A stretch of DNA of 64,000 nt, taken from assembly GCF_018350175.1 (NCBI RefSeq), contig NC_058379.1, positions 29,760,001 through 29,824,000 of the forward strand. The letters run 5' to 3'. The translations under genes and the position numbers were made by a program. Every line of letters begins with the position of its first letter. Position 1 is the stretch's first letter. Shown here piece after piece: positions 1 to 25,600 of the stretch. The stretch is from Felis catus (Eukaryota). The notes beneath the pieces are model-generated. The model did not search any database. It was given only the letters and a program-made list of their open reading frames with translations, and had not been told where the DNA came from.

Positions 1-2317
1 CAGCCAGAATTGGGAATGGGACACAGAACGGCAGTAAAGGGGACAAGGAAGAATCAGTGAGAAGAGGGGCAGCCTGGACAGACGCTAGCTTTATTTAAAG
101 TGTTGACAGTTTTCCAGAGTGTGTTTGCATTAATTTTTATTTTTTTGTATTGTATTAAAATATGATTTATCTGAATTACTGAGTTTTTAGCATCCCTTAA
201 ATTTTGTGCCCAAGACTAGTGCCTCATTCACCTCACCCTGGTATTCTGGGTAGGGAAGAAACAAGGAGGCAGTGGCAGGACGTCCACATGGGTGGTGGGT
301 GCTGTCATCCCAGGGTTCCCAGGCCTCCTCCTCTCAACTGATGAGGACTACCTCCTTGCCCTTTCCCTGCTGGCCAGAGGCCACTCCCTGGAGCAGTAGG
401 GCGCAGGCTCCAGCTGATACTTCTGACTTGGGAGTGGGTCTTCCTTGCTGTCCCCAGGTCACCAGACCCTTAGCCAAGGACCTTCAGCCAGGGCCACCTC
501 CTGTGACTGACCCCTAAGACCCTGAGCCCACCCAAGGTATAATGCCCCTTTGCTGAGTGACCCCAGGCCCTCCTCTCTGTGTGTGGTAGGAAGTCCCTGG
601 ACAAAGTGCCAAGAATTTGGGTCCATCTATGATAATGAGTGACACAACAGCACGTTCATTGTGGGCACTAATCATTTTAGGGGCAGAACCGCCTTCAGCA
701 ACCCCATAAAGCAGAGGCTGCTGTTACCCCCATGTTACAGATAAGGATAGAGGTCCAGAGAGATGAAATGACCTGCTCATTGTCACCCAGCTGGTGCAGA
801 CTCCAACACTCAAACCCAATAGTTTCCAGCTGTCCCCACTTCCATCTCCTAACTGGTGGGACTGACAAGTCTGCCTCTCCCCATCTCAGTTGCCTACTCT
901 GCAAGGCAAGGGGTCTTAACTGAGGGAGGGCCTTGTAACCTGACACCCACTCCAGAGATGCTGGGGCTGCCTCAGTGAAAGGTTAGAATAAGATGAGCTG
1001 ATTTTGTTTGGTACCAGCAGTCCAGCCAGGGAGGGGGTCAACACCTATGGGTGTTGGGTGAGGACTGGCATCTTGGTGTCCATCAGGGCCCAGGAAAACA
1101 TAAGGAGAGATGGAGCCCCCACTGGGGTCAAGCCCTGTGCTGAGGCTGGGATTCCAGGGGAGCAAGGTTTGGCCCCAACTCAAGGTTCAGTAGGAGAGGG
1201 GGCCAGATGAAGCAGCAGCCACACACAAAGACAATGACAAGGTAGTAGAGGCACAAAACACTCAGGAAGCTCTCAGCCATCTGCAGGGCTGCAGTGAGTG
1301 GGTACTGGGGCCAAGATGGTCTGAGAGAAGGCTGAACAGGTGACCAGTCTCCAACCTAGAGGACCGATCCCTAGAGGACAGACTTCATCTGGGGGATTCC
1401 AGGGAACTTTTGCAAGGAAAGGACATGACCAGACTTGGGTGGGTGAGGGTGGGAATCCAGATGTAGAGTGACTTTTCTGGGGGGTGGGGGCAGTGTCCCA
1501 GGAGGAGTGGACAGACAATTGGAGATTCAGGAAGAGGGGGAACAGGAAAGGGAAGATCCAGGGTGCCCAACCCCAGATTTTTTGCTAGATATCTAAGAGA
1601 ATGCTGTGACTGCACCAGTGTGTCCTATATTTTAACAAAATGGTCCAAGAGAAGGAGAAGTCTTGCAAGGTATTGGTCTCTCCCAAGAAGGTCCATTCAT
1701 TTTTGGGCCACTCAGGGTCAGTGGATGCAGACAGGATGGGCCTGAACCAAGGGGGTCATGTGCACACTTGAGGATGGACCTCTTAGACCATTTTTGGAGC
1801 AGTAAAGTGGGAGGGGGGAGGATGTCCAAGCTGGTTTTACAGATGGAAGGCTGTTGGCCAGTGATGGGGTCTCTCCAGGCAAAGGGAGGGTGAGGTTCAT
1901 CAGGGAGCTGCGGGAGGGGAAAAGGAGAGTGGCAGCAGACCGCAGGGGGTTTTATGTATTTGCACTTTTTCTTGAAGACCTTGAGGGACGTAAGTAAGGG
2001 ATACTCACAGTCAGACTTGTGTCTTGGAAAATGGCTCTGGATTTTTCCATGCCAAATTAGAGGAGCAGCGAGGGGGCTGTCTACACAACGACCAAGATCA
2101 CCTGTGAAATTGACAAGTGAATTTAAAGTGATGGTACCAGGGGCGGCTGGGTGGCTCAGTTAGTTAAGTGCCAGATTCTGGATTTTGCTCAGGTCATGGT
2201 CTCACAGTTAGTAGTTGGAGCCTGGCATGGGGCTCTGTGCTGACAGTATGGAGCTTGTTTGGGATTCTGTCTCTCTTCCTCTCTCTGCTCCTACCCTGCT
2301 TTCACTTGGGGGTGTAT

Positions 2318-2351
<34 letters not shown>

Positions 2352-2642
2352 AAAGTAAATCAACTTAAAAAAAAAAAAAACACTTTTAAAATGATGGTAC
2401 CAGAGGGTCGACAGGGGAGGAATGAGTGCTCTCATGGATGGTCAGTGGGAGATAAAATTCTTGGAACAAATAACATCAGTTGCCAAGATTCAAAAAAAAT
2501 CTGCATTTCTTTTAATCAAGTAATTCCATCTCTAGAAATTTATCTTGAAATAATCAGAGCTTCTGCTAAATATTATAAGTGGGGAAAAGGTGGAAACAAT
2601 CTCAATGTCCGATGATAGACTATGGTATATCCATGGAAGGGA

Positions 2643-2794
2643 NNNNNNNNNNNNNNNNNNNNNNNNNNNNNNNNNNNNNNNNNNNNNNNNNNNNNNNNNN
2701 NNNNNNNNNNNNNNNNNNNNNNNNNNNNNNNNNNNNNNNNNNNNNNNNNNNNNNNNNNNNNNNNNNNNNNNNNNNNNNNNNNNNNNNNNNNNNN
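2643..2794. other. Assembly gap (others at 8484-8755, 10592-10757 and 43403-43540)
   Basis: Runs of N. Confidence 0.99.
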
Positions 2795-5202: not shown

Positions 5203-5237
<35 letters not shown>

Positions 5238-5623
5238 TTCCTGCTCATGGTCTCTGTCTCTCAAAATAAGTACATAAGCTTAAAAAATAAAATAGATATA
5301 GGTGAGTTTTAAATATTTGTGTCTTTTAAGGAATTGGTCCATTTCATTTAAGTTGTGAGATTTATTAGCATAAGGTTTTTTCTAGTATTCCCTTCCTAGC
5401 ACTTTAGTGACTACAGGATCTGTAGTAATACCCCTCTTTTATTTCTGATATGGACAATTTGTCTTATCTCATTTACTTGCTCAGTATGGTTAGAGATTTA
5501 TCAATTGTATTGATTTTTCAAAAATCAGATTTTTATCTTATTAATTTTCTCTATGTTTCTCTGTTTCAGTTTCATTGATTTCTGCTCTTCACTGTTTCTT
5601 CTACTTGGGGTTGATTTTCTTGA

Positions 5624-6234
5624 TTTTCTAAATTATTTTTTTATGTAAGGACTTAAGATTTATTGAAACTATATATCACAATAGAATCTTTAACCAGGAA
5701 AGCAACTTTACAGTGACAAAGTATGGAAGTAGATTCACAACCACAGGCTCTACTTACAGCCGTATTAAGATCATACTCCCCAGAAACTGCCAGACTGATA
5801 GAAAGAGTTGAATTAACAAGATAAAAACTCAGTGGATCCAGATGACCTGCTTTATCTTGCTTGGGAGAGAATCAGAGTGTGTAGATGATTGTTTTAGGCA
5901 GCATCTGCCTGGTATGTTAGGAAGCAATCTGATCATACATATGGTGAATTCCCCTTAATTTCTATTTTAAAATGTTCTTTTTTTTAGCCCCCCAAACTTT
6001 TAAACAAAGTTAACAAACAGTGTATTATAGGTTTCAGGAGTAGAATTTAGTGGTTCATCACTTACATATAACACCTGGTGCTCATCTCAACAAGTGCCCC
6101 CTTAATGCCCATCACCCATTTAGCCCATCCTCCTACCCACCTCCCCTCCAGCAACCCTCAATTTGTTCTCTGTATTTAAGAGTCTCTTATGTTTTGTCTC
6201 CCTCTCTGTTTTTATCTTATTTTTCTAAATTCTT
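5624..6234 (-). mobile_element. 5'-truncated carnivore L1 3' end carrying a 3' transduction
   Basis: TSD TTTTCTAAATT(A/C)TT at 5624-37 and 6221-34; L1 3'UTR ~5995-6220; non-L1 sequence 5643-5977 with AATAAA (TTTATT 5659-64). Confidence 0.7.
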
Positions 6235-7322
6235 AAGGGTGTAAGTTTAGAGAACTGAAGTGGATGAAAAAGAAAATACAAAATATCAATATTTATGGGA
6301 CATAGATGAAGCAGTGCTTAGAGGGGAAAGCTTATATAAGAAAATAAGGGGGAGCACTCAAATATGTAAATTAACTAATCACAAGCATAAAGAAACTCAT
6401 TGATAATAATACCATAATAGTAGGGGACTTCAACGCCCCACTTACAACAATGGACAGATCATCTAAACAAAAAATCAACAAGGAAACAATGGCTTTGAAT
6501 GACACACTGGACTGGATGGACTTATCAGATATATTCAGAACATTTCATCCTGAAGCAGCAGAATACACATTCTCCTCCAGTGTACATGGAACATTCTCCA
6601 GAATAGATCACACACTGGGACACAAATCAACCCCCAATAAGCACAAAAAGATTGAGATCAGACTGTGCATATTTTCAGATCACAACGCTATGAAACTTGA
6701 AATCAACCACAAGAAAAAATGTGGAAAGATAACAATATTTGGAGACTAAAGAAAAGAAGAAAAGCATCACATAAATTTTGTTTTAAAATATGAATAATAC
6801 ACTTATTTATTTTAAGTAAACCCTACCCTCAATGTGGGACTCAAACTCACAACCCCAAGATCAAGAGTTCCATGTTCTACCAACTGAGCCAGCCAGGTGC
6901 CCCAATAATATACTTTTTTAAAAGCCTAGAAGAAAATATACTAAAACTATTAATAATGTTTATCCATAGTGGACTTACAAATAATTTTAACTTTAAGTTT
7001 CTTCTTTGATTTTCTTTATTTCCCAATATTTCCTTAAGATCATGTGTGTCTTATTTTGTCTTTATTATTTTTTTGTTTTATTTTATATTAGAGAGAGACA
7101 GAGACAGAGTACGAGCAAGGGAGGGGCAGAAGGATGAAAACAGAATCTGAGGCAGGCTCCAGGCTCTGAGCTGTCAGCACAGAGCCTGATGCGGGGCTTG
7201 AACTCACGAGCCATGAGCTCATGACTTGAGCTGAAGTCGGACACCCAACCGACTGAGCCACCCAGGTATCCCTTATTTTGTCTTTAAATATAATTTTTTA
7301 TCATGTTAAAACACACATAACA

Positions 7323-7545
7323 GGGGCGCCTGGGTGGCGCAGTCGGTTAAGCGTCCGACTTCAGCCAGGTCACGATCTCGCGGTCAGGGAGTTCGAGCCC
7401 CGCGTCAGGCTCTGGGTTGATGGCTCAGAGCCTGGAGCCTGTTTCCGATTCTGTGTCTCCCTCTCTCTCTGCCCCTCCCCGTTCATGCTCTGTCTCTCTC
7501 TGTCCCAAAAATAAATAAACGTTGAAAAAAAATTAAAAAAAAAAC
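7323..7545 (+). mobile_element. Young feline SINEC
   Basis: GGGGCGCCTGGGTGGCGCAGTCGG head, (CT)n, AATAAA and A-tail; TSD ...CACACATAACA. Confidence 0.9.
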
Positions 7546-9717
7546 CACACATAACATAAAGTATATCAGCCTAATTACTTTTAAGTGTAGAGTTTGGTGG
7601 TATTAAATACATTCACTTTGGTGTGCAGCCATCACCACTGCGCATTGCCAGAACTCTTTGCATCTTGTGAATCTGAAACTCTATACTTTTTAAAAAACTT
7701 ATTTATTTTGAGAGAGAGAATGGGGGAAGGGCAGGGATAGAAGAAGAGAGAGAATCCCAAGCAGACTCTGCACTCTCAGTGCAGAGCCTGATGAGGTGCT
7801 CAAACCCATAAACCATGAGATCATGACCTAAGCCGAAATCAAGAGTCAGACATTTAACTGAGCCACTCAGGTGCCCTGAAACTCTATACCTTTTAAACTC
7901 TATATCTTTTAACCCCCTGGAAACCATCATTCTACTTCCTGCTTTTATGATCTTGACTACTCTGAATACCTCACATAAGTGGAATCATGCAGTATTTGAG
8001 CACTAACAGTGCAGAAATGTTCCAATTTCTCTACATCCTTACCAACACTTGTTTTCTAGTTTGTAATTTTAACAGTAGCCATTCCAATGAGTGTGAGGTT
8101 GTATCTCATTGTAGTCTTAATTTGCATTTACTAATTATTGGTAATATTGAGCATCTCTCATGTGTTTATTGGCCATTTGTGTATCTTCTTTGGAGAAATG
8201 TCTGTTCAAGTCTGTTGCCCATTTTTGAATGGGTTGTTTGGTTTTTTCCCTTGACTTATAGGAGTTCCCTATATATTATGATATTAATCTTTTATTACAT
8301 ATATGATTTGCAAATATTTTCTCCCATTCTGTTCGTTGCCTTTTTACCCTGTGGATAGTGTCTTCTGTTGTACAAAAATTTGAAATTTTCATTTCAAAAG
8401 TCAAAGTTGTCTAGTTTTTCTTTTGTTGTCTGTGATTTCAGTGTCATATCTAAGAAATCATTGTCAATCTGATGTTATAAAGCNNNNNNNNNNNNNNNNN
8501 NNNNNNNNNNNNNNNNNNNNNNNNNNNNNNNNNNNNNNNNNNNNNNNNNNNNNNNNNNNNNNNNNNNNNNNNNNNNNNNNNNNNNNNNNNNNNNNNNNNN
8601 NNNNNNNNNNNNNNNNNNNNNNNNNNNNNNNNNNNNNNNNNNNNNNNNNNNNNNNNNNNNNNNNNNNNNNNNNNNNNNNNNNNNNNNNNNNNNNNNNNNN
8701 NNNNNNNNNNNNNNNNNNNNNNNNNNNNNNNNNNNNNNNNNNNNNNNNNNNNNNNTGTCAATACTACACTGTCTTGATTACTGTAGTTTTATAGTGATTC
8801 TCAAAACCTTATAATGTCTGCCATCCTTCCAAGTTTGTTCTTTCCCTTCACTATTGTATTAGCTATTCTGAGTCCTTTGCCCTTCTATATAAACCTTAGA
8901 ATCAGTTTGCCAATATCCACAAAATATTTCTGGGAAAGCAATATTGCTGTGAATTTGATTGGGGATTGCATTTAATCTATAGATCAAGTTGAAAATAACT
9001 GACATCATGATAATATGGAGTCTTTCTATCCATGAACATGGAATATTCTTCCATTTACTTAGGTTTTCTTTGATTTCTTTCATTAGAATTTGTAGTTCTC
9101 CTCATATAGATTTTGTATATATTCTGTTAGATTTATACCTAAGTAGTTCCTTTTGAAGGGGATGATAATGTAAATGGTACTGTTTTTAATTTCAAATTCT
9201 ACTTGTCATTGTCAGTATATAGAAAAGTAATTGACTTGTATATTAATCTTGTATCTGTAACCTTGTTATAATTGCTTACTAGTTCCAGAAGTTTTTTGGT
9301 CAATTCTCTTGATTTTCTTCATAATCACATACTTACAAAGACAGTTTTATTTCTTCTCTCCCAATCTGTATACCTTTTGTTTCCTTTTCTTGTCTTATTG
9401 CATTAGCTAGGACTTCCAATATGATATTGAAAAGTGGTGGTGAGAAGGGACGTCCTTACCATGTTCTGACCTTATTAGGAAAGCTTCAAGTTTTTCACCA
9501 TTAAATATGATGTTAGCTGTAGGGGTTTTTGTGGATATTTTTTAGCAACTTGAGGAAATTCCCTTCTAGCCCTAGTTTACTGAGTTTTTTTTTTTTTTTT
9601 GTCATAAATGGTGTTGGGTTTTGTCAGATGCTGTTTCTGCATCTATTGATATGATCATGTGATTTTGTTCTTCTTTAGCTTGTTGACATGATAGATTACA
9701 TTAACTGACTTTTAACA

Positions 9718-9930
9718 ATTTTTTTTTTAACGTTTGTTTATTTTTGGGACAGAGAGAGACAGAGCATGAACGGGGAAGGGGCAGAGAGAGAGGGAGACAC
9801 AGAATCGGAAACAGGCTCCAGGCTCTGAGCCATCAGCCCAGAGCCTGACGCGGGGCTCGAACTCACGGGCCGTGAGATCGTGACCTGGCTGAAGTCGGAC
9901 GCTTAACCGACTGCGCCACCCAGGCGCCCC
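9718..9930 (-). mobile_element. Young feline SINEC
   Basis: Full-length reverse copy; TSD CATTAACTGACTTTT. Confidence 0.9.
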
Positions 9931-10201
9931 CATTAACTGACTTTTAAATGCTGAACCAGCCTTGTATGCCTGGGATAAATCCCACTTGGTTGTGGTGTAT
10001 AATTCTTTTAATACATTCTTGTATTCAATTGGCAAATATTTTGTTGAAGATTTTTGCATCTATATTAATAAGAGATATTGTTCTGTAGTTTTCTTTTCTT
10101 ATAATGTCATTGTCTGGTGTTGGTATTAGGGTAATGTTAGCCTCATAGAATGACTGAGATTGGTAAAATTTTATGCTATGTATGTTTTACCACACATACA
10201 C

Positions 10202-10240
<39 letters not shown>

Positions 10241-12094
10241 AAAAGAAAAAAAGAGGAAAATGGCACTACACACAACAGGACAGATGGAGAGATAAATATT
10301 ACACTTTAAAAAGGTATTTAAATGTATTTTATTGCTTAATTGTGTTATATATGTAATATTATTATAATTTTAAAACAAAAATCATATTGCAGCACAAAAC
10401 CAACAACATCTGACTGGACCAGCTTCTAAGGTGGAAATGCACTGGTCCAATCCTCTGGCGGAGATGTTTGCATGCAATAAGCCCCAACTTAATGTCACAT
10501 CCTTGTATCAGTTAGGAGTTAACATCAGCAAAGGCAAAACCTGGGGCTTCTTGTGGTTTTTGAGTATCAGAGGGTGATTCTATTGCTTCTCNNNNNNNNN
10601 NNNNNNNNNNNNNNNNNNNNNNNNNNNNNNNNNNNNNNNNNNNNNNNNNNNNNNNNNNNNNNNNNNNNNNNNNNNNNNNNNNNNNNNNNNNNNNNNNNNN
10701 NNNNNNNNNNNNNNNNNNNNNNNNNNNNNNNNNNNNNNNNNNNNNNNNNNNNNNNNNAGGCTTCAGGCTCCAAGCTGAAGAATCTGACACGGGGCTCGAA
10801 CTCACAGACCATGAGATCATGACCTGAGCTGAAGTCGGACGCTCAACCAACTGAGCCACCCAGGCGCCCCTTGTTTTAACTTTAAAAGGGAATATTTAGA
10901 TGCACGATCTAAGAAGACAGGTTTTGGGCCTGAGAGTTGGGTAGTGAGAGCACTCGTGGTCACGTGTGACAAGGTGAAGACAGACAAAGGGCTGGGTTAG
11001 GGGGAAAGGGTGGTCAGTCTCATTTGGACACGGAGAGTTTGAGATTCTTACTGGACATCCAGCTGGAGATGGTCAGTAGGTAATTTAGGGAGAGCCAAGA
11101 AGAGGGTTTGGGGCTGGAATAGACTCAAGCATTACAAAATGGGCAGTAGTGGGAATCCACAATGTAGGAAGATGGCAAAGAAGGAGGAGGACCCAGGGTG
11201 CCAGTCTGGGAGTCAGCTGCCATGCATTGACTGGGGTGAAAGAGAAGTCAGGGGAGAAGAATGTGGGATCTCAGGTGCCAACAAGAAGAGAGTCACTGAA
11301 AAGAGAGGCTGACTCTGTGTTGAATCCTGTAGAGCCATAATGTACAACAGGAACTAGGGAATTGACCAGGAAGAAGACATTGTTGGTTCTGACCTGAGAG
11401 CTTTCAGGGAGAGATGGAGATGAAAGCCAGGGGAGCCTGCCATGTCCAAGCATGTGAAACAGTGCCTGGAGCTACTGTTGGATGGATGGGTGGGTGGATG
11501 GATGAATGGATGGATATGTGGATGATGGGTGGATGGATGGACACATGGATAGATGGACAGACAGGTGTCTCAGAAAGACAGTGGTCTGAGAGATCAGAGA
11601 AAGCTTCATAAAAGAGGTGGAATTGAATTGTGTCTTTGATGTGTAGAGAAAAAGTGTGTGTTTGGGTCTTCACATGGGAGCACCATGAGTCAGGAATGAC
11701 CCAGTCCCAGACCAGTAGGCTCAGGGAGGAAGCCACCTGGCTAGACCATGAGAAATTGTAGGAGAGGAACCCTCAGAAGCCCTAAATGAGGCCAGAGAGG
11801 TCAGACAGGTCTGAGCCAGTTTAGGACTCACTCTGCCACACCATGTGAAAGAACTAGGCACTCAAGGATTTATTGAACACCTACTGTATGCAGTGTCACT
11901 GTCAGCACTGAGGATCAGGAGATGACCAAGACAGCCTTGGAAAGGGGTAATACACAAGACCATGGGTGGAGTTGGCCTCAAACAGAGGGCTAGGCACAGG
12001 GACACCTCAGGGCTGTGGGCTCATCCAGGTGTGCCACAGCTTCTGGGAGGCTGGCTGCCCAGCCCCACCTGCTACAGCCCTGTGCCCATCACAG

Positions 12095-12213
12095 GTTCCT
12101 GTTCTGGCCTGGCCCCCACGGGGCAGGCCCCAGGTGCTGGCCTGGTGGGTTTTGGTCCGAAACTCAATCACCCTGGCTTGTTTTCAGTGAAGGAACCCAG
12201 CTCACCGTCCTAG
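12095..12213 (+). CDS. IGLL1: Lambda5 / immunoglobulin lambda-like polypeptide 1, exon 2 (unique region plus J-like beta strand)
   Basis: Acceptor acAG|G at 12093-94 and donor CTAG|GTAAGT at 12214. Translates (R)[39 protein letters not shown](G), matching the GPRCWP..GF and GTQLTVL motifs of IGLL1/IGLL5 exon 2. Its phase joins the C exon in frame. Confidence 0.85.
12148..12175 (+). other. Degenerate 12-bp-spacer recombination signal sequence embedded in IGLL1 exon 2
   Basis: GGTTTTGGT (12148-56) + 12-nt spacer CCGAAACTCAAT + CACCCTG (12169-75), directly before a 38-nt J-like segment. The heptamer lacks the essential terminal GTG. Confidence 0.75.
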
Positions 12214-12837
12214 GTAAGTGGCTTTCACCATATTTCCCAACATGTCCCACCCCTCTGTTGTCTGAGGAAAGTTACTTTCTCTGGAGGCCGTTTCCTATCT
12301 GCTTCCCAGCCTTAAGGGAAGATTTGCCCTTAGCAAATCTGTGGGATCTGGGGGAGGTGGGTTGGTCTCAGGGAAACCAGAAGGAAGAACTTCAATGGTA
12401 CAAGCATTTACCTTTAGAGTCTGACAATTGAATGTGGTCAGGTCCTAGGGCCTGGGTTAGGGGCGTTGGTCCAAAACTGGGGACTGCTTCCCTTCTTCCA
12501 GAGCAGACACCTGTGTGGGGTCCAGAGACTGGTTCTGACTAGGGGCACTGGGGCAGCCTTGGAGAGAGTCGTTTGGAGTCTTGGCTAAGGGCTTGATGCC
12601 CATCCATGAGGTTGGGGACATGGCTGGGGCTGTGACCTCAGCCTTCAGGAACATAGAGGAGCAACATGAGAGGAGGTCCATGGGAGGAGGACAGAGAGGT
12701 CTGGTTTGGTCCAGGCTGAAGCGCTCGGGGCCTCTATGAGGCTATGAGGATGCAGGGACACAGAGACATGAGTGATGCAGGACAAGGTGACCAGAAGCAC
12801 GGCCCTCCCAGGACATTGATCAGAAAGGAGTGGGTCC

Positions 12838-13045
12838 TGGGGCACCTGGGTGGCTCAGTCGGTTACGTGTCCAACTTTGGCTCAGGTCATGGTCTCACAG
12901 TTAGTGGGTTCTAGCCCCATGTTGGGCTCTGTGCGGACAACTCAGAGCCTGGAGCCTGCTTCAGATTCTGTGTCTCCCTCTCCCTCTGTCCCTCCCCCAT
13001 TCTCTCTCTCTCTCAAAAATAAGTAAACACTTTTTAAAAAAAGGA
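12838..13045 (+). mobile_element. SINEC in IGLL1 intron 2
   Basis: tRNA-derived head, CT tract and A tail. Confidence 0.85.
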
Positions 13046-13537
13046 AAAGAAAGGAGCAGGTCCCCTGGGAAGAGTTTTTTTCTGTCCCTGGAGCCCCATA
13101 ATCCCAGGGCCCCAGGTATCTCACCTGTCTAAGGTGAGAGTGACCAAGTGGAGAGTGAGTGGAGGCTCAGAGCTACACAGCTGCCCCTTAAAGTCAGCAG
13201 TCATCAGGATTGTGTTGGCAGGCTAGGTGGTAGACTGCAGTTCACAGGGGAAGTACCCGGATCCAGAAGAATGAAGTGATATGGGGGCCAGATGCTGGGC
13301 TGAGGGGAAAACCGAGGCTGCAGATGCACCTTTCATCTACCTGGGAGAGGTGACACGGAAGGGCTTTTGGGAGCATGGGGAACTGCCTGCTGTCCAGAGC
13401 TGAAGTGGAAAGGAGGATCCCCTGGGTGAACCAGCATGGCCACCATGGGAAAAGTCACAGAGGCTATAGATGGGGAAAGGGCTGCCCAAAGCCTGGACTC
13501 TCCCTGTGTTTCTCCCCGCTCTCCTCTGTCCACACAG

Positions 13538-13857
13538 GTCAGCCCAAGTCCGCACCCTTGGTCATGCTCTTCCTGCCCTTCTCTGAGGAGCTCAGAGCCA
13601 ACAAGGCCATCCTGGTGTGCCTCATCAGTGACTTCTACCCTGGCAACTTGACGGTGACCTGGAAGGCAGACGGGACCCCTGTCACCCAGGGCGTGGAGAC
13701 CACCAAGCCTTTCAAACAGAGCAACAACAAGTATGTGGCCAGCAGCTACCTGAGTCTGTCACCTGACAAGTGGAAATCTCATAGCAATTTTACCTGCCAG
13801 GTCACACACGAGGGGAGCACCGTGGAGAAGAGGGTGGTGCCCTCAGAGTGCTCTTAG
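13538..13857 (+). CDS. IGLL1: Lambda5 exon 3, C-lambda-like Ig constant domain
   Basis: Acceptor cacAG|GTCAGCCC. Translates [46 protein letters not shown]...[20 protein letters not shown], with both Ig cysteines, the Trp and the penultimate Cys intact. PLVxLFLP and PVTQGVETT resemble mouse lambda5 as I recall it. AATAAA at 13970-13975. Confidence 0.88.
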
Positions 13858-15649
13858 GTGCCTGAGACCCCCACCCACCCAAGAGGATGTGCAGCCAATG
13901 GACCTCCAGGAAGGTCTCTCCTCCCACCAGGATCATCCCAGCCCTTCTCCCTGCACCCAATCAATGCTCAATAAAAAGTCCTTCACTCAATCAGAAATCG
14001 TGTTCTCATTGGGGTTCATCACTTTGTGCCCTAAACTCAACCATCTTCAAACATGAACACCATTCTTTTCATCCTGTGGGAAAGGAGTTGGCAGAAGGCA
14101 TCCTCATGTTTTTTGAGGGGTAGTTTTACTCTCATCCAGAATTGCCAGAGAATATTCCAGAATAGGAGATATAAATCGAACCAAGATAGACTATCCTCCA
14201 CCATGTCTGTATGCTTGCTTTTCTTGCATGGACCACATCAGTCACCAGCAGTACTGAAGCCCGTGGACTCCTGGATAATGTCTGAGCTCCTCCCTGGACC
14301 TGGGGCCTCACTGTCTGCTATTAGACCCCCTCCTGAGATGTCCACTTTCCTTCCTTGAATGCCCCCACTGATGCCACCATGCAGAGAACGGACGTGCTGA
14401 GGATGCTGGGAGGCAGGCCAGGGCAGGGTCCCAGGGGCAAGAGTTCTCGAGGGTGGAGGAGTGCTCAGTGCCACAGGCAGGGGATAGGCAGGACAAGGGC
14501 ATGAACGCACATGCTGAGCCCTGCTAGTTGACTGGAATGTCCAGAGCCCAGGAGAGGGACAGGGATGGGGCTCAGAGGAAGCAAGCCCAGGGTTAGAACT
14601 CCTGAAGGCCTTGGCCCTGACCAGATCTGTGGTTCCAAAAGGCAACTGTACCCTAAGATATTATAGAGTGGCCTTATTGTGCCCATACTATTTATAAAAC
14701 ATGGGGACACATGTTATTCAGCTGAGCCATTCAAGGATTCTGTGAGGTTGACAGCCAGGATTATGGCCCCATTTCACAGGTAGGAAAACTGAGGCCCAAA
14801 ATTATTAACATACCAAAGAGCAAGACAGACTCAACTCCTACATGTCCCAACTCCTAGTCTGGGGCCTCCCATCTGATAGACAGGGAAACTGAGTCCAGCA
14901 GAGGATGGGGCCTACCTGAGCTCACATAGAACTGCTCCTGTATGGAGAGCTGCCCTCTGCCAAGCACCAGGCATGCTCACATGGGGTGACCTCCCTCTGT
15001 CATTCTGTGGCCCCAACTCCCTTTCAGAAGCGCAGAAAGGAAGCCCAAGAGTGGATGGCAGGCTGAGCCGGGGCTGCAGACCCCAGTGACGGTCCCTCTA
15101 CTCATGGGTGACTAGAGGGAGGGCCAGCAGGCAAAGGTCCTGGGGGAAACTCTGTGGTAGGAGCCCATACCCTAGATTTGGGCAGGCTGGGATCCTCACC
15201 CACATGCATCCCTTCTCAGCCTTTGACCTTGGGTGACATGCAAACCCTCTGTGGGCCTCAGTTTCCTCAGCTGTACAAGGGGGAGATAACTAGTCTCTCC
15301 CCCACAGGGTAAGTGTGGGGATTCAAGACAATGTCTGTGATGTACCTGATCCACAATGACCCTCACTAACCCCCCCAGCTATTGCTGTCATCTCCTGGGC
15401 TCTTGCCCAGGGGATGCCTCTGACATGCTATGTGACTGTGAGCAAGTTGCTTCCCCTTTCTGGGCTCCAACGTTTCCCTCTGCCCAAGGACTGCTGGGTG
15501 AGAGGCTTCAAGGGCCAGCCTGCCAGGAAATAGGAGGATAACTACATAAAGGAATTTGGCATGGAGGCCCTGGGCCTGCAGGGGCAGTGAGGCATAAAGC
15601 TAAAGGGGGTTAGAGTAAGTTGCCTCCCCCAATTCTAGTGGCCTTGCTG

Positions 15650-15800
15650 GCCACCCATGGGAACCCCCAAGCTAAAGTTAATCTTAACTTTGATCTAAAC
15701 CAGAACTCAGGATGATAAAAGGGGAGAAATAAGGGGAAGAGAAACTGACCCTATGGTCAGTGGGGCGTGGGACAGGTGACAAACAGAGCCAGGTGTGGCC
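15650..15800. promoter_or_regulatory. Ig-lambda 3' enhancer-like module (EBF-like site, lambdaA-like, lambdaB/EICE, E-boxes)
   Basis: CCCATGGGA 15654-62; CAAGCTAAAGTTAATCT 15668-84; GAGAAATAAGGGGAAGAGAAAC 15724-45 containing GGAAnnGAAA at 15735-44; CAGGTG at 15773-78 and 15790-95. Confidence 0.65.
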
Positions 15801-16102
15801 CAGGAAAGGGACAAGCAGATTCAAGGTTATAGCTGGAGGTTTGTGTAGCTCACAAGAGAGGGTAGCAGAGTCCTCACCCTACACTCAGCCCTCTCCCCAC
15901 CCCAGCCTGGGCCTGGTGCTGGTCCCTGGCTGCCTCCCGGAGCTCTGCTCAGAATCCTGGAATCCTAGAGGGCATACCTCTGGGTCTCTCACCTCCTTCT
16001 TCCAGGACCTTCACTAAGTGCAGTCTCTTCCTAGGACTGCAGACTCTTTATCTCATCTTCCACCCAGTACCTGGTAACTGCAAGGCTACCAAGAAAGTTT
16101 GA

Positions 16103-16420
16103 AGGAAGGAAGGGAAGGAAGGAAGGAAGGAAGGAAGGAAGGAAGGAAGGAAGGGGTGAATAGATAGATATGTGCATGGGTGAATGATTGATGGATGTGT
16201 GGGTGGATGGATGGATGGATGGATGGGTAGTTGGGTGGGTGGGTGGGTGCATGAACAGAGATAGGTGGATGATTGATAGATGTGTGGGTAGATGGGTGGA
16301 CGTGTAGATAGATGGATGGATGATTGATGGATAGGTGATGAGTAAATGTATTGATGAGTTCATGGGTAGGTTAGTAATTGGATGGGTAAATGGGTGGATA
16401 GATAGTTGGGTGGGTGGATA
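16103..16420. repeat. (GAAG)n followed by degenerate (TGGA)n simple repeat
   Basis: Seen directly; a similar (TGGA)n tract lies at ~11480-11555. Confidence 0.9.
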
Positions 16421-16554
16421 GATCCTAACCATGAGAAACACAGAAACTTGGTGCCTGGCAGTTCTGTGCAAAGTGACTGAACCCGACACTTGGGTGCTGA
16501 TGCTGATGCTGACTTGAGTGTGACCTTGGGGCCATCATCACCTGAATGCACTAG

Positions 16555-17320
16555 CAATGAGCAATCTCAAAAAGGAAATTAAGACAATCCCACTGACAAT
16601 AACATCAGAAAGAATACAGTTCCTAGGAACACATTTAACCAAGCTGGTGTGAGGTTTGTGCACTGAAAGATGGAAATGCAAGCACCCTGAAGAGCCAAAA
16701 ATATCTTGAGGGGCGCCTGCATGGCTCAGTCAGTTGAATGTCCAACTCTTGATTTCGGGTCAGGTCATGATCCCAGGGTCATGGGATAGAGCCCCATGTT
16801 GGGCTCCATGCTGAACCCATGGGGCCTGCGTGGGATTCTCTCTCTCCCTCTGCCTCTCTTCCCCACTCATGCTCTCTCTCTCTCCTGCTCTCTCTCTCTC
16901 TCCTTCTCAAATAAAATTTTAAAAAGTATCTTGAAAATGAAGAACAAAGTTGGAGAACTCACACTTTCCAATTTCAATGCTTAGTAAAAGCAACAGTAAC
17001 CAAAATGCAGTCCTGGCATAAGAATAAGGATCAATGCAGTGGAATTGAGAGTCCAGAAACGAAACCATACACCTGAGCCAACTGATTTTTTTAAACAATT
17101 TTTTAGAGAAGTTTTAAGCTCACAGCAAAATTAAGAGGAAGGTGCGGGAATTTTCTGTTTACTGCCTGCCGCCACACATGCACAGCCTCCCTATTATCAG
17201 TCTCCCCCTCCAGAGGGTGCTTGTGTCACAACTGACGGACCTACATTGACCAGTCATTATTGTCCAAAGCCTAGAGTTTACATTATGGTTCACTTTTGGT
17301 ATTGTGCCTTCAAAGGTTTG
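16555..17320. mobile_element. Old L1 fragments with an inserted SINE (~16710-16920)
   Basis: ORF2-like peptide (ILKMKNKVGELTL) and an antisense L1 3'-UTR-like tract. Confidence 0.6.
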
Positions 17321-18163
17321 GAGTCAGCCAAAGGACCTGGAGGAGCTAATCTTGGGAGGAAAGATCCAGGCCTGGGAGATATTTCTCTCCTATCTTGGGA
17401 CCATCCTGATGGAAAGTAGTCTCTGGGGCCCCTAAACTTCAGGCTCAGGTGGAAGCAATAGAGTGTGGACGAGCTCAGCTCAACATAAGGGAAAATCGCC
17501 TTATTTGTATTCTGAGTTCTTATTAAAATACAATTCGTTCATCTTGGTCTTTAGTTTAAAAATAACAACAGCTCACTCCAAATAATGTAGAAAGTACAGA
17601 AACGTGAACAGAAGAGAAAATCCCCCCCTCATACTTTGCCCAGAAGAACCACTGCTGATATTTTGATGTACTTCCTCTACTTTAACCGTAAACTAGAACA
17701 ACCATAAAAAGTATACATAAAATGTATTTGTAAAGTTTAAAAAGTAATAATAAAATAGGTCATGTACCACCTTAGAATCTGAACGTGACCAGGACCTCAG
17801 GAGCCCTTGCGTTAACCATCTCTATACTTTTTCCCATAGTTTTATGTCCTCTGGGTGCCATTGAAACAACTGTTTTTCAGCTTCATCTGTTTTTGAACTT
17901 CATATAGATTCAGTGAGACTGCATGTGTTTTCTCTCTCTCAAGACTGTGTCTTTCATATCCATCCATGATGAGGCTCCTCTTCACTGCTGGTGGAGTAGC
18001 CACCACCTGGCTGTGTGCCCAGTCCTCGGTGACACTAGGCAGGTCTGCCTGAGGAGCCGGCCCGCCACCACCTCTGGAGCCCCAAGTGAGGGTTTCTTCG
18101 GGGCTCTATCATCATGCAACCCATTGTTTTGATTTGTTTTGTCTTTAAAAATGGAGACAGCTT

Positions 18164-18395
18164 GGGGCGCCTGGGTGGCTCAGTCGGTTGAGCGTCCGAC
18201 TTCGGCTCAGGTCATGATCTCGCGGTCTGTGAGTTCGAGCCCCGCGTCGGGCTCTGGGCTGATGGCTCAGAGCCTGGAGCCTGCTTCCGATTCTGTGTCT
18301 CCCTCTCTCTCTGCCCCTTCCCCGTTCATGCTCTGTCTCTCTCTGTCTCAAAAATAAATAAACGTTAAAAAAAATTAAAAAAAAATAAAATAAAA
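18164..18395 (+). mobile_element. SINEC
   Basis: Full length; TSD TAAAAATGGAGACAGCTT. Confidence 0.9.
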
Positions 18396-19860
18396 ATGGA
18401 GACAGCTTAGTTTTTTTCCTGTTACAAAGAGGAATACAAAGATTCTTTTAAAATAAAACAGAAGAAAAGTATAAAGAAATTGCTAGCACAGCCTGGAGAC
18501 TGTGCTGGTTGTATCTGGTGTTTGTCCTTCCAGACTTGACCTTGCATTTCACATAGACAACAAATAGATGATAGATGATAGGTAGATAGATGGACGATAG
18601 ATAGATAGAGAGCTTTCTTTTGTCACTGAACAGCACACCCACCCAGGGGCAGGTAAACCTGGGCGTGCATCACACTTGTGAACCTGAGGTTCTAACAACA
18701 CTCAGGCAGCCTGTTCTGGGTTCCACTAGCGCCACCATTCCATACAAGATGCAGCCAACACCCCTGGCCTCCATCCCTATGCACTTGTCCCACCACTGAC
18801 TTTGAGTTGACCATTGCCACACTGATCAAAGGTCATGCCTGTCTAAGGCTCTGGAAGCATGTTACAGACTGACTTCCAGAAAGGCAGCACCCCACTCCTC
18901 AGAGCCCAGAAGGCCCCCCTGGAACCTAAGAAAGGGACAGCATGGACATGGATAGACAGGCACCCAAGGACATTGCCCTTCTATCTGTCCCACCCTGACT
19001 CTTGCTCTGCTCTGAGGCAGGAGGCAGAGAGGGGCTCTGAGGTTTCTTCCCAGTTCCTGGGGGCATCCACCACAGAGTGGTCCCTCCTCAGGAGGTCTCA
19101 GAGGAGGCAACCTCTCCCCAATGGTTGCCTCTCCCCAATGGTGTTTCCTTGGCAGCACCGAGCCCCAGGTGGAAGGAGAAGGCTTGGGACTGTGAGCTCT
19201 GGGGGGTGCTGGGAGGGTGTCAGGGCTGCGAGTGGGGGGCTGTGGACCGGGGTCTGTGGGGTCTGCACATGTTGGGCTGTGGGAAGGTGCAAGAGGCCTG
19301 CTGCTGATCCCCACAGTCAGGGCCCCAGGAGGTATTTGGTCTCCTCTGCCCGAGATAACACATGGCTGCTCAGTTTCTGAGGCCAGAGGCCCAAGTCTGG
19401 CCTTCCTGGGGCACCTGCCCTTGATGTGGAGGTTGGAGGGAGGAGCTCCAGCCCCAGCACCTCCAGCAGCAGGGCCTGGGGCTCCCACTCTGGGAATGGG
19501 TCTGAAAGCCTTGGCTGTCAGGCCCAGCAGGGGTCCCAGTTGCCCCAGGAGACAGAGGGGAGCTTGAAGGGGGTGGGGTCACTGGGACCTTAGAGACTGG
19601 GCTCCACCCACTCAGCTTTCACAGCAGAAACTGAGGCCCACAGGGGGCAAAGGACTTGCCTAGGTTACACTGTGAGCCTGGCTACCAGCTTCTAGGCCCA
19701 GTGCTCTCCATCACATGGCACTCACATGTCCTTGGCCCTGAGGGGCCCCCTCTCTGCTGGGCCTCAGCCCTGTAACCTGCACCCTGGGACACAGCATCGC
19801 TTCTGGGCTGTGGAGCTGAAACACATTCAAGCACATCCTGGCTCAGTTGGCACTTGTCAC

Positions 19861-20110
19861 TGTGCAAATCAATAAAGGGAAACCTCACTAAAGTGGACCC
19901 TGGAGGATAGAAGGCGAGGCCAGAAAAGAGAGCTGTACCACTCAATGTCAATTATAGGGAGAACAGTCAGTTACAGACCTCAAATGAAGAATCATCAACA
20001 GAAAAGAATGACCACAATTACAGGCCCAAAGGGACAAGACGTACCTTGAAACTTCTGTAATAAACCTACCCCGTCTGCAACTCAGCCAATGAGAAACTAT
20101 CCTCACCCTC
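19861..20110 (+). mobile_element. Truncated LTR of the same family as the 22.6-31.9 kb provirus
   Basis: Starts TGTGCAAATCAATAAAGGGAAACCTCACT and shares CAATTACAGGC, CCAATGAGAA and TCACCCT blocks with both proviral LTRs. Confidence 0.75.
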
Positions 20111-20435
20111 CCCTCCAGCCACCTCTCCTTCAAGGCCTGGGGGAGCCAAGTGAGCCCACTACCCCACACCCACATTCCAGGTTCCTTCTGATGGGCCAGG
20201 CCCACCCTCCTAGCACTGCCCTAGCCCAAACACCTCAGGTCCACGCCTGAGGAGAGGAGCTTGGGTCTGTCAGGAGCTGATGGCCAAGTGGTCAGGAGCC
20301 CAGCCAGGAAGTCACCATGCATGGTGCAGAGGTATCACCCACACAAGGATGTCACCATCTTACCCAGCTGTCCTCCATGGGCCACATGGTGTCCTGGCTA
20401 CATTCCTGGCCAAGACATCCCTGAACAATGCTCTG

Positions 20436-20496
<61 letters not shown>

Positions 20497-21739
20497 TTCG
20501 GGTTCTCAGGATCCTCCCAGAGCCCCAATGCTGGGCCTTCTCCCAGGGGAGGGGTGGGACAGAGGAGCTTAGGGTCTTGAACCTCCAGGTCCCCCCAACA
20601 CAGGGTGCACAGACTGCCCCCCACCATGAGGGAAGAAAGCATCATGGGGAAAAGGAATTTCCAGACCAGAGGGTCCCTGAGAGGGGTCTCCTCCATGCTA
20701 GATGCGGGGGAAACACAAAAATACCAAGAACACTGACATGGTTGTGGCACACTCACCACACATAAGCAACAAATCCTAACCTGTGGTCAACCAGCTCCCA
20801 GCTTTCCGTAAGAGAAGAAAAACAGCTGGCCAAGCTGGACTCCCTTGTTCCGCCCTTGTCTCCTAGTTCTATGTACTCCCTATTCTTGGAAAGAAACCCA
20901 GTGTCATTCATTACACACGTAGCTACTGATCTGCTCTGAAGCCTGGCATTGCTTTAGGCCCTGGGGACATGACTGTGCTGAGACCAAGTCCTGAAGCAAA
21001 GTTCCAGTGGGTGGCAGAGGTCAGAACAAAGACATGTTATGTTGTAGTATGTGGTGTGATGAGTTCTTTAGGAAAAGGGAGAGGTTAAGGGAAGAGTGTG
21101 GCAACTGTTAGCTTAGATGGACGGTCAGGAGAGGCTACTCCTGAAGGAACTGAGAGGATCAGCCAGGGAAGGTGCTTGGGGAAGAGTGCTCCCTTGCAGA
21201 AGGAACAGCAAGTGCAAAGGTCCTGGGGAGGGATGTGCCTGACAAATTGCAGGAACAGCAAGGAGGCCAGTGTGGCCTGATTACAAGGAAGGCTGGGAGG
21301 CGGCAGAGGGAGCCAGAGTGTCCTTGGGGCCTTGCAATTTGTGCAGAGCATCTTGAATTTTGTTCCAAGTTTTTAAATGTACCCGAACATCATGTCGACA
21401 TATCTTGTTCCTTCTAACTTTCTACGTATAATCAACCAGGCTCTAACCACTGAGCTCATGGCTCCGTGTGTGAATAGACAGTATGGTACTGGCCATCCGG
21501 GTAGATGGATGAACATTTGGGCAGGTCCCATTCCTCCTTCACAAACACTGGCCCAGGGAACCCCTGCGCATCTCTAGTGCACACAGCAGACCTAGAACTG
21601 CAGGGACACAGGGAGTCTCTATTCCTGCAACCGCGGGGACATGGGATGTCTATGTTCACTTTTGCTATGAGCTGCAGCCAGCTCTTAGGAGCAGCCGGAC
21701 TAATTTACTGCCTGGAGACAGGTCATGGCCCCACTCTCC

Positions 21740-22400
21740 ACGTTCGTGCGCTTCCTTGGATTTTTGACGTTCCCAGGTTGCTGCCCCCGCGTTGTGCATC
21801 ACCCTCTCCCCCTCCTCGGGCGCCGCCGCAGCACTGGGAACCCGGGTAAAGCCCACTGGCGTCAATCGGCAGTCACTAAGTCCCGCCGTCCTTGTCCTCA
21901 TTCTACCCTGCCTACTATGACCCTGGATTCTGGAACTTCAGTTTCCCGTGGCCTCACTCGGAATTCCCTGAGCCCTCCCCGCGGTCCTGGTCTCCGCTCC
22001 TTCGTGTCCGCGCCCTGGAGCCCCCACCTGAGCATCTAGCGAGGGGACAGAGACCCCTGGCGACCGAAAAGGGTAAGGTGGGTCCAGGAGCCCGGGTGGG
22101 GATGCCGGGGGCTAGAGAGGGATGGCGTGGGGCGACCCTCGGAGAGCACAGAGAACCCCGGACCACCTCCCTGGGACTCACGCTGTGGACAGAAGCTGGG
22201 CTAGCGGTGTGCCCAGAAGGGGGCCCTCTCCGGATCGCCCCCCAGTGTGGGCAGGGCAGCCCGGCTTCTGGGGTTGAAGGCAGGAGGGTCCTGGAGCCCA
22301 AGGAACACCTCTTCCTCTCAAGCTGCAGACCGTCGCCGGCCCCGCCCACTCTCCCACCAGGTTCCCATCCTGCCTGGGGTTCTCTTTCTTAGCCCGAGGT
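21740..22400. promoter_or_regulatory. Orphan CpG-rich island
   Basis: Dense CpGs against CpG-poor flanks; no recognisable CDS. Confidence 0.5.
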
Positions 22401-22656
22401 TCTTCCGTGTATAGTAAGGGTCCTCCCTTGGCTCCAGAGGACCAGTGAATGAGAGTGAAACAGTGTGAGGCTTGGACAGGAGGGTGAGGAGTCAAGAAAG
22501 TGCTTGTCTGAGGGATTGTGTGTGGGGTGAGTGTTTGTAGGCGTCTGGGTGTAAGCAAGTGTGAATGTATGTAGGTGATGTTCATTCCTCTCCCAGCTGA
22601 TTCACATATGTCTCTTTCTCTTCCCCTCAAAGAAAAACCAGAGCCGCAGAGAAGTT

Positions 22657-25600
22657 TGTGAAAATTAATAAAGGGAAACTTTCCTGAAATGGAGTGGCAG
22701 CAGCTCTCAAGACCTACCATTAGACTCAAGGGTTGTCAGTTACAGATCCTCAACAGAAGCATCAACAGGAAAGAATCATCAATTATAGGCCTCAACAGAG
22801 AAAGCTGGGCATTGTATCTCCTACAAGAAACTGACCACCCAGCTACTCCGCCAATGAGAAGCCTTCATCACCCTGAACGCTTGTCTTTCTCCAATGATCT
22901 CCTTCAAAACAACCCCTCCCAACTTCCTCCTTCTCCATATGATAATGTTTCTCTCCTTTGTTGGACTAGCCTATGGTTGTTTCCCCAGCTTGAATTGCAG
23001 TATTCTGGTATTCCCTAATAAACCCATTTTTGCTGGGAACATGAAATGCTTTTTTAAGGTCAACATTACTTGGAGATCAGAAGTAGGATCCAGAGAAGAC
23101 CCCCACACACACACACAATTCCGAGGCTGGTGAGCAAACAGGTGATGGTACCCGCAGAGCTCACTGCTTTCTTGTTGAGTTTGAGGATAAGTCTCTCCTG
23201 GATTTGGAGCTCCACTTTCTGCATTTTGAGCTTTCTAGGATTCATTTGGGATTGATTTTAGAGCTTTCTTTGTTCTTTCTGAGAGTACTCATTTGGACTT
23301 TGGTCCAATTTCCTATTTATGTTATTTTATTATTATTATTTTAAATGTTTATTTATTTTTGAGACAGAGAGAGACAGAGCATGAACAGGGGAGGGGCAGA
23401 GAGAGAGGGAGACACAGAATCTGAAACAGGCTCCAGGCTCTGAGCTGTCAGCACAGAGCCTGACGCGGGGCTCGAACTCACGGACTGTGAGATCATGACC
23501 TGAGCCGAAGTCGGACACTTAACCGACCAAGCCACCCAGGTGCCCCTATTTATTTATTTTAGAGAGAGAGAGGGCAAGTGAGAGAGAAGGGCAGAGAGAG
23601 AGAAAATCCTTCTTTTTTAAATTTTAAATTTATTTTGGGAAAAAGAGAGTGCGCATGTGTACACAACCAGGGGGAGGGGCAGAGAGAGAAGAGAAAGAAT
23701 ATCCTGAGCAGGCTCTGGGGCTTGAACTCACCAACGGTAAGATAATGACCTGAACTGAAATCAAGAGTTGGATTCTTAACTAAGTCACCAGGTGCCCTGA
23801 GAGGGGGGTGGGGGAGAAAGAAGGAGGAAAAGAGAATCTTAAGCAGACTACACCCTCAGTGCGGAGCCTGATGTGGGGCTGAATCCCAAGGCCCTGGGAT
23901 CACAACTTGAGCCAAAATCAAGAGTTGTAGGCTCAACCGCCTTAGCCACCCAGGTGCCCCTGTCCAGCTCCTTTTTAGAACCAGCTATTTCTATTGAAAC
24001 TGTCCTAGCCCTTGGTCTGATTTCTTTTGGAGCCAGACTGTGCCTATTAAAACTGTGTTGTTTATGAATTTTTCTGCTCTAGATAAAAACCTCTAAGAAA
24101 TGGGGTCCCAGCCCTCAAAATGCTTTAAGAGGGCCCTCCCCTTCTGGGACCCTGGCCAGTTTTATCTTTAAAAACTGTGCACATTTCTCATGCACATTTC
24201 TAACTAAATGGACTGACTTGATCAAAAGTAATTTAAGAACACCCATGGCCATTATGGAGAATTTGAGGCCACTCTGGCCATCATGGGGATTTTTCAGTCT
24301 CTCCATACGTCCTTTTCTCAAAACTGAATTGGGCAGCCATGCTTCTAAAATTGTCAAAACTGAATGGGATGGTATTCAGTTCTATTTGGATTGGTTTTGA
24401 AGCTTTCAAATATTATCAGGAATCTAAAATTATCTCTGCAAAATACAGTTTCTAGGCTGAGACAAAGACAAAAAGGCATCTGAGGCCTGTTTTCCCCTCC
24501 CTGTTTTCTTTGTCTCCAAATACACAGCAGCCATTTCATCAGGCCCCACTTTGGGTGCTATCTTCTTCCCCTCTGCACCACCTCCATCTCCTCTATTTCC
24601 TCAGTTTCCCCATCCAATTATCCTGCCCAAATGTCCTGAACCTCTCCTTGCTCCATCCTACTTTGAACCTATCAGAACCTGCCCCTTTATTTTATTTTTT
24701 TTAGTGTTTTACTTACTTTTGAGAGAAAGAAAGAGAGAGAGGCCAAGCACAAGCTGGAGATGGGCAGAGAGAGAGGGAGACACAGAATCAGAAGCAGGCT
24801 CCAGGCTCCAAGCCGTCAGCACAGAGCCCAATGTGGGGCTTGAACTCACGAACCGTGAGATCATGATCTGAGCTGAAGTCGGACGCTTAACCTACTGAGC
24901 TACCCAGGCACCCCAGAACCTGTCCCTTTAAAGTCAAACCTTCTGAGGATCCAAATTAATGCCAAATATCTTCCGTTCCCGGGACTAAGGCCGAATTTGG
25001 AGCCATAATCAAAGTGTTTCCTAAATTGACTGAGGATCCCCATAAGTTTGCTGAGGATTTTAATAGAGTTGTTAAAACTTACCAACCTCATCTCTCAGAT
25101 TTGGACCAGTTAATCCAGTGTTTGTTGGTGAGGGGCAGGCCAAACATTGGGGGATGAAACTTGCCCAATGGGAACATCCTGAAAGAGAAAAACAAAACCT
25201 AACTTTTGACAAAAATGTTAGAACACTAGCTGAAAACCTCCACTGAGCTTGTACAATAGCTTTGTGTAAGCTTGTTGATTGGAATGAAATTCAGGCTTGC
25301 TCACAAAAATTTGATGGATCTGTTTGTGACTATTGTAATCAACATTTGTTTGTTTTCAAAGAATATTCTGGTCTTCCTTTAGATGTTGAAAACACTCGGG
25401 TCACCTTAATGCCATGTTTATTAAGGGGCTGAACTGGGATCTTTCTCTTTTAGTTAAAACAACCAGGATGCAATGGGAGACTATGTCCCCTCCAGATATA
25501 ATCAGTTTGACAAACCAGCTTTCACACCCCAGATGAGACACCTAGAAGAAACACTTCTAAAATTCTTAATTTTCACCTCTCACCAGTGGAGGCCCCTGGA

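Follow-up and report, generated by a model that had tools for sequence, protein, structure and literature searches.

A paralogue of the immunoglobulin lambda 3' enhancer lies behind the lambda5 gene of the cat

A lambda5 gene downstream of VPREB1

The window analyzed here is a 64,000-nucleotide stretch of the cat genome (G000:C27:29760001-29824000), and bare positions below are window coordinates. It carries two of the three exons of a lambda-like gene, the first exon lying just outside:

L022:9754-9953 (just before the window), plus strand: lambda5 exon 1, whose translation is in frame with exons 2 and 3
12095..12213, plus strand: lambda5 exon 2 (unique region and J-like strand), flanked by AG/GT splice sites and sharing its frame with exons 1 and 3
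13538..13858, plus strand: lambda5 C exon, with an AATAAA at 13970

The three exons have AG/GT ends and form a single reading frame of 212 residues in total, which is 95 to 100% identical, exon by exon, to a tiger protein. A protein search with exon 1 gave 7 matches among 328 candidates, namely, six proteins of 211 to 215 residues (tiger, meerkat, panda, seal, horse, and gorilla) and one of 140 residues (dog). For three of the seven, the source gives the name "lambda-like polypeptide 5", and the database names do not say IGLL1; we call the gene lambda5/IGLL1 because of its position, with VPREB1 and a topoisomerase gene upstream and the VPREB3 block downstream. When PDB was searched, exon 2 alone found nothing significant and the C exon matched, under a strict cut-off, ordinary light chains only. 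An ordinary IGL C unit, or a misplaced piece of IGL, is ruled out by the three in-frame exons, the lambda-like relatives of 211 to 215 residues, and the adjacency of VPREB1.

VPREB1 (L020:9436-9979, outside the window at C27:29.739 Mb; best PDB match, human VpreB, 2h32_A, E = 1.9e-54) lies on the same strand as lambda5, 20 kb upstream of its exon 1 and 36 kb upstream of the element described below, which is itself 15.9 kb from the lambda5 promoter. Further upstream, at C27:29.63-29.64 Mb, there is a type IA topoisomerase gene, probably TOP3B. Downstream of lambda5 follow a C2H2 zinc-finger gene at 41.7 to 43.1 kb with its own CpG promoter, presumably ZNF70; a V-set gene at 48.2 to 49.3 kb, which we take to be VPREB3, 33 kb from the element; CHCHD10; and a matrixin gene. 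The order topoisomerase IA gene - VPREB1 - lambda5 - VPREB3 block in the cat agrees with the usual eutherian arrangement. In the available text of PMC9614664, this arrangement is given as TOP3B - VpreB1 - IGLL1 - VpreB3 block, VpreB1 and IGLL1 are eutherian-only, and VPREB3 is older than lambda5 and present in all tetrapod groups.

Searching the genome with the C exon gave 23 matches. Besides the exon itself, these are 18 matches clustered on the minus strand at C27:19918798-19996538 and 4 located on other contigs. The lambda5 C exon is single, and 9.8 Mb separates it from the 18 C-like copies in this IGL cluster. The cluster includes tandemly repeated units of about 9.5 kb and 13.1 kb that are nearly identical, and its last C exon is broken; after it comes a decayed J unit (L009:7290-6255, minus strand), with a J that has a recognizable recombination signal and with 3' flank remnants, lacking a C exon.

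Intron 1 of lambda5 is about 12 kb long, AT-rich, and filled with LINE-like and SINE sequences (2100-10900); the matching distance in IGL is about 5 kb. ARAGORN made ten tRNA calls in the window, all ten of which coincide with SINE copies.

A single genomic partner at the 3' end of IGL

An earlier inspection of the sequence (the original prediction) had placed an Ig-lambda 3' enhancer paralogue about 1.8 kb downstream of the lambda5 C exon. Indeed, 1,790 bases separate the end of the C exon, at 13858, from the core of the element, and each of the quoted strings occurs once in the window, in the order given (15654, 15668, and 15724, followed by CAGGTG at 15773 and 15790). A whole-genome DNA search with 15560-15860 (2 candidates scored) returned a single paralogue, at C27:19903108-19903318 on the minus strand, 77% identical over 209 bases (E = 1.3e-34) and 9.9 Mb away. 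It sits 15,455 bases beyond the stop in the final C exon of the IGL J-C cluster; the cattle counterpart of the human enhancer is found about 13 kb beyond the last C, according to the available text of PMC3946162. Furthermore, a spaced pattern of MEF2 and PU.1-IRF motifs occurs at exactly 2 places in the 2.43-Gb genome, the element and this IGL 3' site, and the reversed control pattern at none.

The two copies were compared within the cat genome and with one published alignment read by eye, Fig. S4 of PMC3972084, in the accessible text of which the enhancers of human, mouse, and chicken are aligned and E-box1, NF-kB, MEF2, PU.1, IRF4, and E-box2 are marked. The 3-base spacer between NF-kB and MEF2 is displaced in that text, and we realigned it by eye. 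The IGL copy carries all of the labeled motifs. Judged by sequence and by its expected position in IGL, the partner 9.9 Mb away is the Ig-lambda 3' enhancer, and the paralogy proposed originally is secure. The features of the lambda5-side copy are as follows:

15646..15797, plus strand: core of the E-lambda paralogue, delimited by the DNA search, the spaced motif pattern, and the Fig. S4 labels
15653..15662, plus strand: EBF-like site, in the element only, overlapping the NF-kB motif; the string first noticed starts at 15654
15659..15668, plus strand: NF-kB motif, with one private change relative to the IGL copy, fitting the NF-kB consensus
15672..15681, plus strand: MEF2 (lambdaA) motif, the same in both copies; the lambdaA-like string first noticed starts at 15668
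15733..15746, plus strand: PU.1-IRF composite (lambdaB), 13 of 14 bases as in the IGL copy; the lambdaB-like string first noticed starts at 15724
15773..15778, plus strand: extra CAGGTG E-box, in the element only and absent from the IGL copy
15790..15795, plus strand: conserved downstream E-box (E-box2), identical in both copies

The element thus retains NF-kB, MEF2, PU.1-IRF, and E-box2 in the order and with the spacing of the IGL copy, the distance from MEF2 to PU.1-IRF being 53 (canonical, about 50). By eye, one base of the PU.1 half differs from the human row of the accessible alignment in both cat copies. Other parts of the core have been altered. E-box1, intact in the IGL copy, is gone through a 7-base deletion at 15645/15646; the segment after MEF2 is heavily changed relative to the IGL copy; and a GAAAC stretch upstream of lambdaB, common to most rows of Fig. 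S4 in the form available, is modified. Of the flanking E-boxes that had been expected, the downstream one is kept, and the conserved upstream one has been removed by the deletion. Both CAGGTG boxes are present (the chance of at least two in 150 bases is 0.016), but only the second is conserved, the first being found in this copy alone. Similarly, the EBF-like string exists as quoted, but it departs from the strict EBF1 pattern at one base and overlaps the NF-kB motif, and five sites of this kind occur in the surrounding block of about 7.9 kb, one of which, at 20541, is strict and common to both copies.

No further E-lambda copies of the kind called shadows were detected, either within the window or across 160 kb surrounding the IGL C cluster, nor were any found genome-wide by the spaced motif pattern, searches that diverged copies could escape.

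The enhancer copy belongs to a block duplicated from IGL

The window matches IGL in three stretches: a set of 5' pieces, the C exon with 0.5 kb of 3' flank, and 14399-22242. The corresponding features are the following:

39..791, plus strand: part of lambda5 intron 1, homologous to DNA before the first IGL J-C unit (BLAST, 73 to 78%)
13859..14376, plus strand: C 3' flank, most similar to the flank of the last IGL C (82% ungapped, against 78% for the first C)
14377..14398, no strand: join, sharp at about 14380-14398, where 13.8 kb of IGL (C27:19904445-19918222) is absent
14399..22242, plus strand: 7.8-kb block holding the enhancer, duplicated from and collinear with minus-strand C27:19904445-19893848 in the 3' region of IGL

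Four pieces, upstream of and within lambda5 intron 1, match DNA before the first J-C unit (75 to 79% ungapped). IGL keeps a lambda5 exon-1-like stretch upstream of its first J (L018, C27:20003103-20003204; 27 of 34 residues), similar to human IGLL5 and to the arrangement given for human Ig-lambda1 in PMC2118775. On the 3' side, similarity spans 14399-22242, well beyond the two short motifs, and reaches about 6.4 kb past the enhancer; a 1-kb piece of the block has the same single paralogue genome-wide. The element is no two-motif coincidence, because the collinear block that contains it is itself joined to the C exon of lambda5, and a chance motif cluster is ruled out by the unique genomic paralogue and by the restriction of the spaced pattern to two places. 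The proposal that lambda5 arose from a J-C unit duplicated together with its 3' enhancer is therefore supported at the level of sequence: lambda5 shares its 5' flank, its 3' flank, and the enhancer block with IGL, as expected from such a copy. With VPREB1 (V-like), lambda5 (J-C), and the enhancer, the locus shows the germline IGL order in miniature. For the lambda5 J-C intron (12214-13537), no match to any of the IGL J-C introns could be detected, though both of its neighbors match.

The 13.8 kb of IGL absent at the join is mostly old unique DNA with the decayed J unit. A loss from the lambda5 copy seems a simpler reading than an insertion in IGL because of the cattle spacing of about 13 kb from the last C, and the 1.8 kb between C exon and enhancer is best read as a result of this loss and not as original; the loss would have placed the enhancer copy close to the lambda5 C exon. 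The opposite reading, in which the enhancer originally lay close to C and IGL acquired an insertion, is less likely, given the age and uniqueness of most of the segment, its decayed J unit, and the similar spacing in cattle.

A recent assembly duplicate is ruled out, since the copies are 13 to 25% different and each carries a private SINE (244 bases at window position 18166, and 220 bases in the IGL copy opposite 21365). The block is therefore older than those insertions. It ends beside an old ERV-like element at about 22.6 to 31.9 kb (22630-31860), whose LTR-like pair is about 70% alike, and no collinear IGL match resumes after this element. There is a partial LTR-like copy at 19966-20109, inside the block, and a CpG-rich patch at 21750-22390, at the block end before the LTR-like sequence, that is possibly an old promoter.

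Divergence between the copies is uneven. Non-CpG distances are 0.22 to 0.31 in the 5' pieces, 0.23 to 0.26 around the enhancer, and 0.13 to 0.19 at 18.8 to 22.0 kb, with a significant difference between 14583-15540 and 18800-19790 (p = 9e-6); accordingly, 18800-19790 and 21000-21700 are 85 to 88% identical to IGL, compared to 79% for the enhancer region. This pattern may reflect gene conversion at a later time between the two loci, which lie 9.9 Mb from each other, or else constraint or further conserved elements. Along with the J-C intron that lacks a detectable IGL match, it speaks for a history, compatible with any of the functional readings below, in which IGL supplied or renewed the 3' block after the birth of lambda5, by lineage-restricted duplication or by gene conversion; the enhancer copy may then be confined to carnivores or laurasiatherians. 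We consider such a history quite unlikely, however. The flank of the enhancer itself is not significantly closer to IGL than the 5' flanks are (p = 0.08), the private SINEs place the block before the SINE insertions, and the human enhancer, as far as the alignment is accessible, is by eye about equally distant from both cat copies.

Changes in the lambda5-side copy and the motifs

Between the two cat copies, the core is identical at 144 of 184 positions (78%) and the 5' flank at 722 of 915 (79%; p = 0.84), and identity rises to 87% in parts of the block farther away. The survival of the enhancer thus requires no selection, since the core is not better conserved than its flanks. Within the core, 38 of the 40 motif columns, a count that excludes E-box1, are identical and 2 differ, compared to 38 differing and 106 identical columns among the other 144 (Fisher p = 0.002). 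Two differences in 40 columns have a p of 0.005 if both copies are neutral and of 0.19 if only the lambda5-side copy drifts, and the IGL copy is surely under constraint. The sparing of motif bases is only suggestive as a sign of function.

Relative to the human row of the accessible Fig. S4 text, read by eye over 156 columns, 18 changes are private to the lambda5-side copy, 13 are private to the IGL copy, and 12 are common to both. The two private counts do not differ (p = 0.47, by eye). Those of the lambda5-side copy fall in 1 of 40 motif columns and in 17 of 116 others (p = 0.04, by eye and approximate), and adding the E-box1 deletion as one event raises this by-eye value to 0.10. Overall, the evidence that the sequence offers for continuing selection appears weak.

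The loss of E-box1 can be set against published experiments. In the accessible parts of PMC3972084, removal of E-box1 did not lower the targeting of hypermutation by the human enhancer, and a strong effect was seen only on losing both halves of PU.1-IRF. The mouse shadow enhancers, whose rows lack E-box1, stimulated a reporter more weakly than the canonical enhancers and targeted mutation strongly. The deletion in the cat would then have struck the most dispensable motif, which fits with function without proving it.

Possible roles of the element in B-lineage cells

The element bears on the question of how lambda5 and VpreB1 gained pre-B-cell expression on arising in placental mammals. Our preferred reading of the sequence, held with modest confidence, is that the element is a real, old E-lambda paralogue that is likely still a B-lineage enhancer of lambda5 and VPREB1. 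Most likely, PU.1 together with an IRF, MEF2, and E2A would bind it in B-lineage cells, and the bound element would assist the lambda5 promoter and VPREB1. The original prediction had named VPREB3 as a possible further target, which now looks less likely than claimed. VPREB3 is the weaker candidate because it is older than lambda5 and because the ERV-like element and the zinc-finger gene with its CpG promoter intervene, and VPREB1, upstream on the same strand, would be the better second target.

The timing is awkward for our preferred reading, as E-lambda seems to come on when lambda5 and VpreB1 go off. According to the available text of PMC3655464, a rise in IRF4 activates E-lambda at the pre-B stage; lambda5 and VpreB1 are silenced at the pre-B stage by Aiolos/Ikaros and NuRD at their promoters, as described in the accessible parts of PMC6690613, PMC5373822, PMC2571989, and PMC13043367. 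Such promoter-level silencing could reconcile late E-lambda activation with early shut-off, and the private E-box and the EBF-like site could move the timing earlier. In the parts available of PMC5373822 and PMC2571989, published lambda5 control centers on the promoter and the upstream region.

Two other readings have to be weighed. The element could be a passenger, copied with the block and drifting ever since, whose motifs look intact because its IGL partner is constrained and only about 1 in 10 bases changed on the lambda5 branch. The equal identity of core and flank, the deleted E-box1, the heavily changed segment after MEF2, the p of 0.19 obtained when one branch is neutral, and the similar numbers of private changes (18 and 13, by eye in the accessible alignment) are all in agreement with this. 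However, the private changes avoid motif columns (by-eye p of 0.04), the spaced MEF2 and PU.1-IRF pattern is exact in both copies, and the adjoining gene is an intact B-lineage gene, and we regard mere drift as possible but rather unlikely. The element could also be active out of phase with lambda5, open, as E-lambda is, in cells of the late pre-B, mature B, and plasma-cell stages, with VPREB3, the zinc-finger gene, or nothing as its target and lambda5 shut at the promoter. Its motifs are those of a late enhancer driven by IRF4, as far as the published descriptions are accessible, and VPREB3 is 33 kb away. Against this, the lambda5 promoter is nearer, the ERV-like element and the CpG promoter come before VPREB3, and a gene that is present in all tetrapod groups (PMC9614664, available text) did not need the copy. 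Out-of-phase activity seems very unlikely to us.

Activity on lambda5 and VPREB1, our preferred reading, can be extended into a wider proposal, which is unlikely as a whole. The eutherian surrogate light-chain locus would be a collapsed copy of the whole of IGL, with V (VPREB1), J-C (lambda5), and 3' enhancer. The enhancer would have been retuned to drive the pre-B-cell receptor genes, through loss of E-box1, gain of an E2A box and of an EBF site over NF-kB, and a position 13.8 kb closer; it would be conserved across placentals and would be the source of the mouse lambda5 3' hypersensitive sites. Metagenomes were searched by pattern for host DNA of other mammals, and 0 of 45 matches align to the enhancer region.

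Should a copy of the IGL enhancer have contributed to the pre-B-cell expression of lambda5 and VpreB1, the pre-B-cell checkpoint had a B-cell switch at hand from its beginning, and two copies of one enhancer can be compared that serve genes of opposite timing, lambda5 being off when lambda chains are on. A 150-base fragment and a few differing bases are singled out for this comparison. Even as a relic, the element would preserve a record of the way in which the lambda5 locus was put together.

Relation to known enhancers and locus control regions

The mouse lambda5-VpreB1 locus control region, reportedly the subject of work by Sabbattini in 1999, is said to include hypersensitive sites on the 3' side of lambda5. 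It concerns the same gene pair, and the cat candidate, just 3' of lambda5, has E-boxes and an EBF-like site. In the literature covered, outside which lie the primary papers on the mouse lambda5-VpreB1 control region (LCR) and on the lambdaA/B motifs, we found neither an E-lambda copy behind lambda5/IGLL1 nor a statement deriving any mouse lambda5 site from E-lambda.

The exon relationship is older knowledge. Evans and Hollis (1991; PMC2118775) treated the three-exon relationship of human Ig-lambda1 and 14.1, according to which lambda5 resembles the first IGL J-C unit plus an upstream exon, and the cat IGL keeps an exon-1-like stretch. That account concerns exons; in its available text, the word "enhancer" occurs 0 times and the 3' enhancer block is absent.

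The canonical Ig-lambda 3' enhancers (human E-lambda/HSS-3, mouse E-lambda2-4 and E-lambda3-1, and chicken E-lambda in PMC3972084, and cattle in PMC3946162, as far as accessible) have the same order and spacing of NF-kB, MEF2, PU.1-IRF, and downstream E-box as the cat element. Like it, they lie 3' of a lambda-type C exon, and they are alignable with it between the motifs. However, they are inside the rearranging IGL, 3' of the J-C cluster and 13 to 15 kb from C, whereas the cat element is outside IGL, 1.8 kb behind the C exon of a non-rearranging gene. It also differs in the deleted E-box1, the extra E-box, and the imperfect EBF-like site, and any enhancer activity of the cat element is putative.

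Duplicated E-lambda copies are already known, namely, mouse E2-4 and E3-1 and their shadows; in the literature covered, we found no description of a copy that is joined to the surrogate light-chain genes, which do not rearrange, and that lacks E-box1 and has moved next to C. In the accessible parts of PMC3972084, the mouse shadows E3-1s and E2-4s are about 70 to 78% like the main enhancer and lack E-box1, with MEF2 and PU.1-IRF kept and, in E3-1s, also E-box2. The cat element resembles them, being 77 to 78% like the IGL enhancer with most motifs kept. Unlike the shadows, which according to the same text lie inside Igl, 20 to 25 kb downstream of the main enhancers, it is 9.9 Mb off, beside a different gene.
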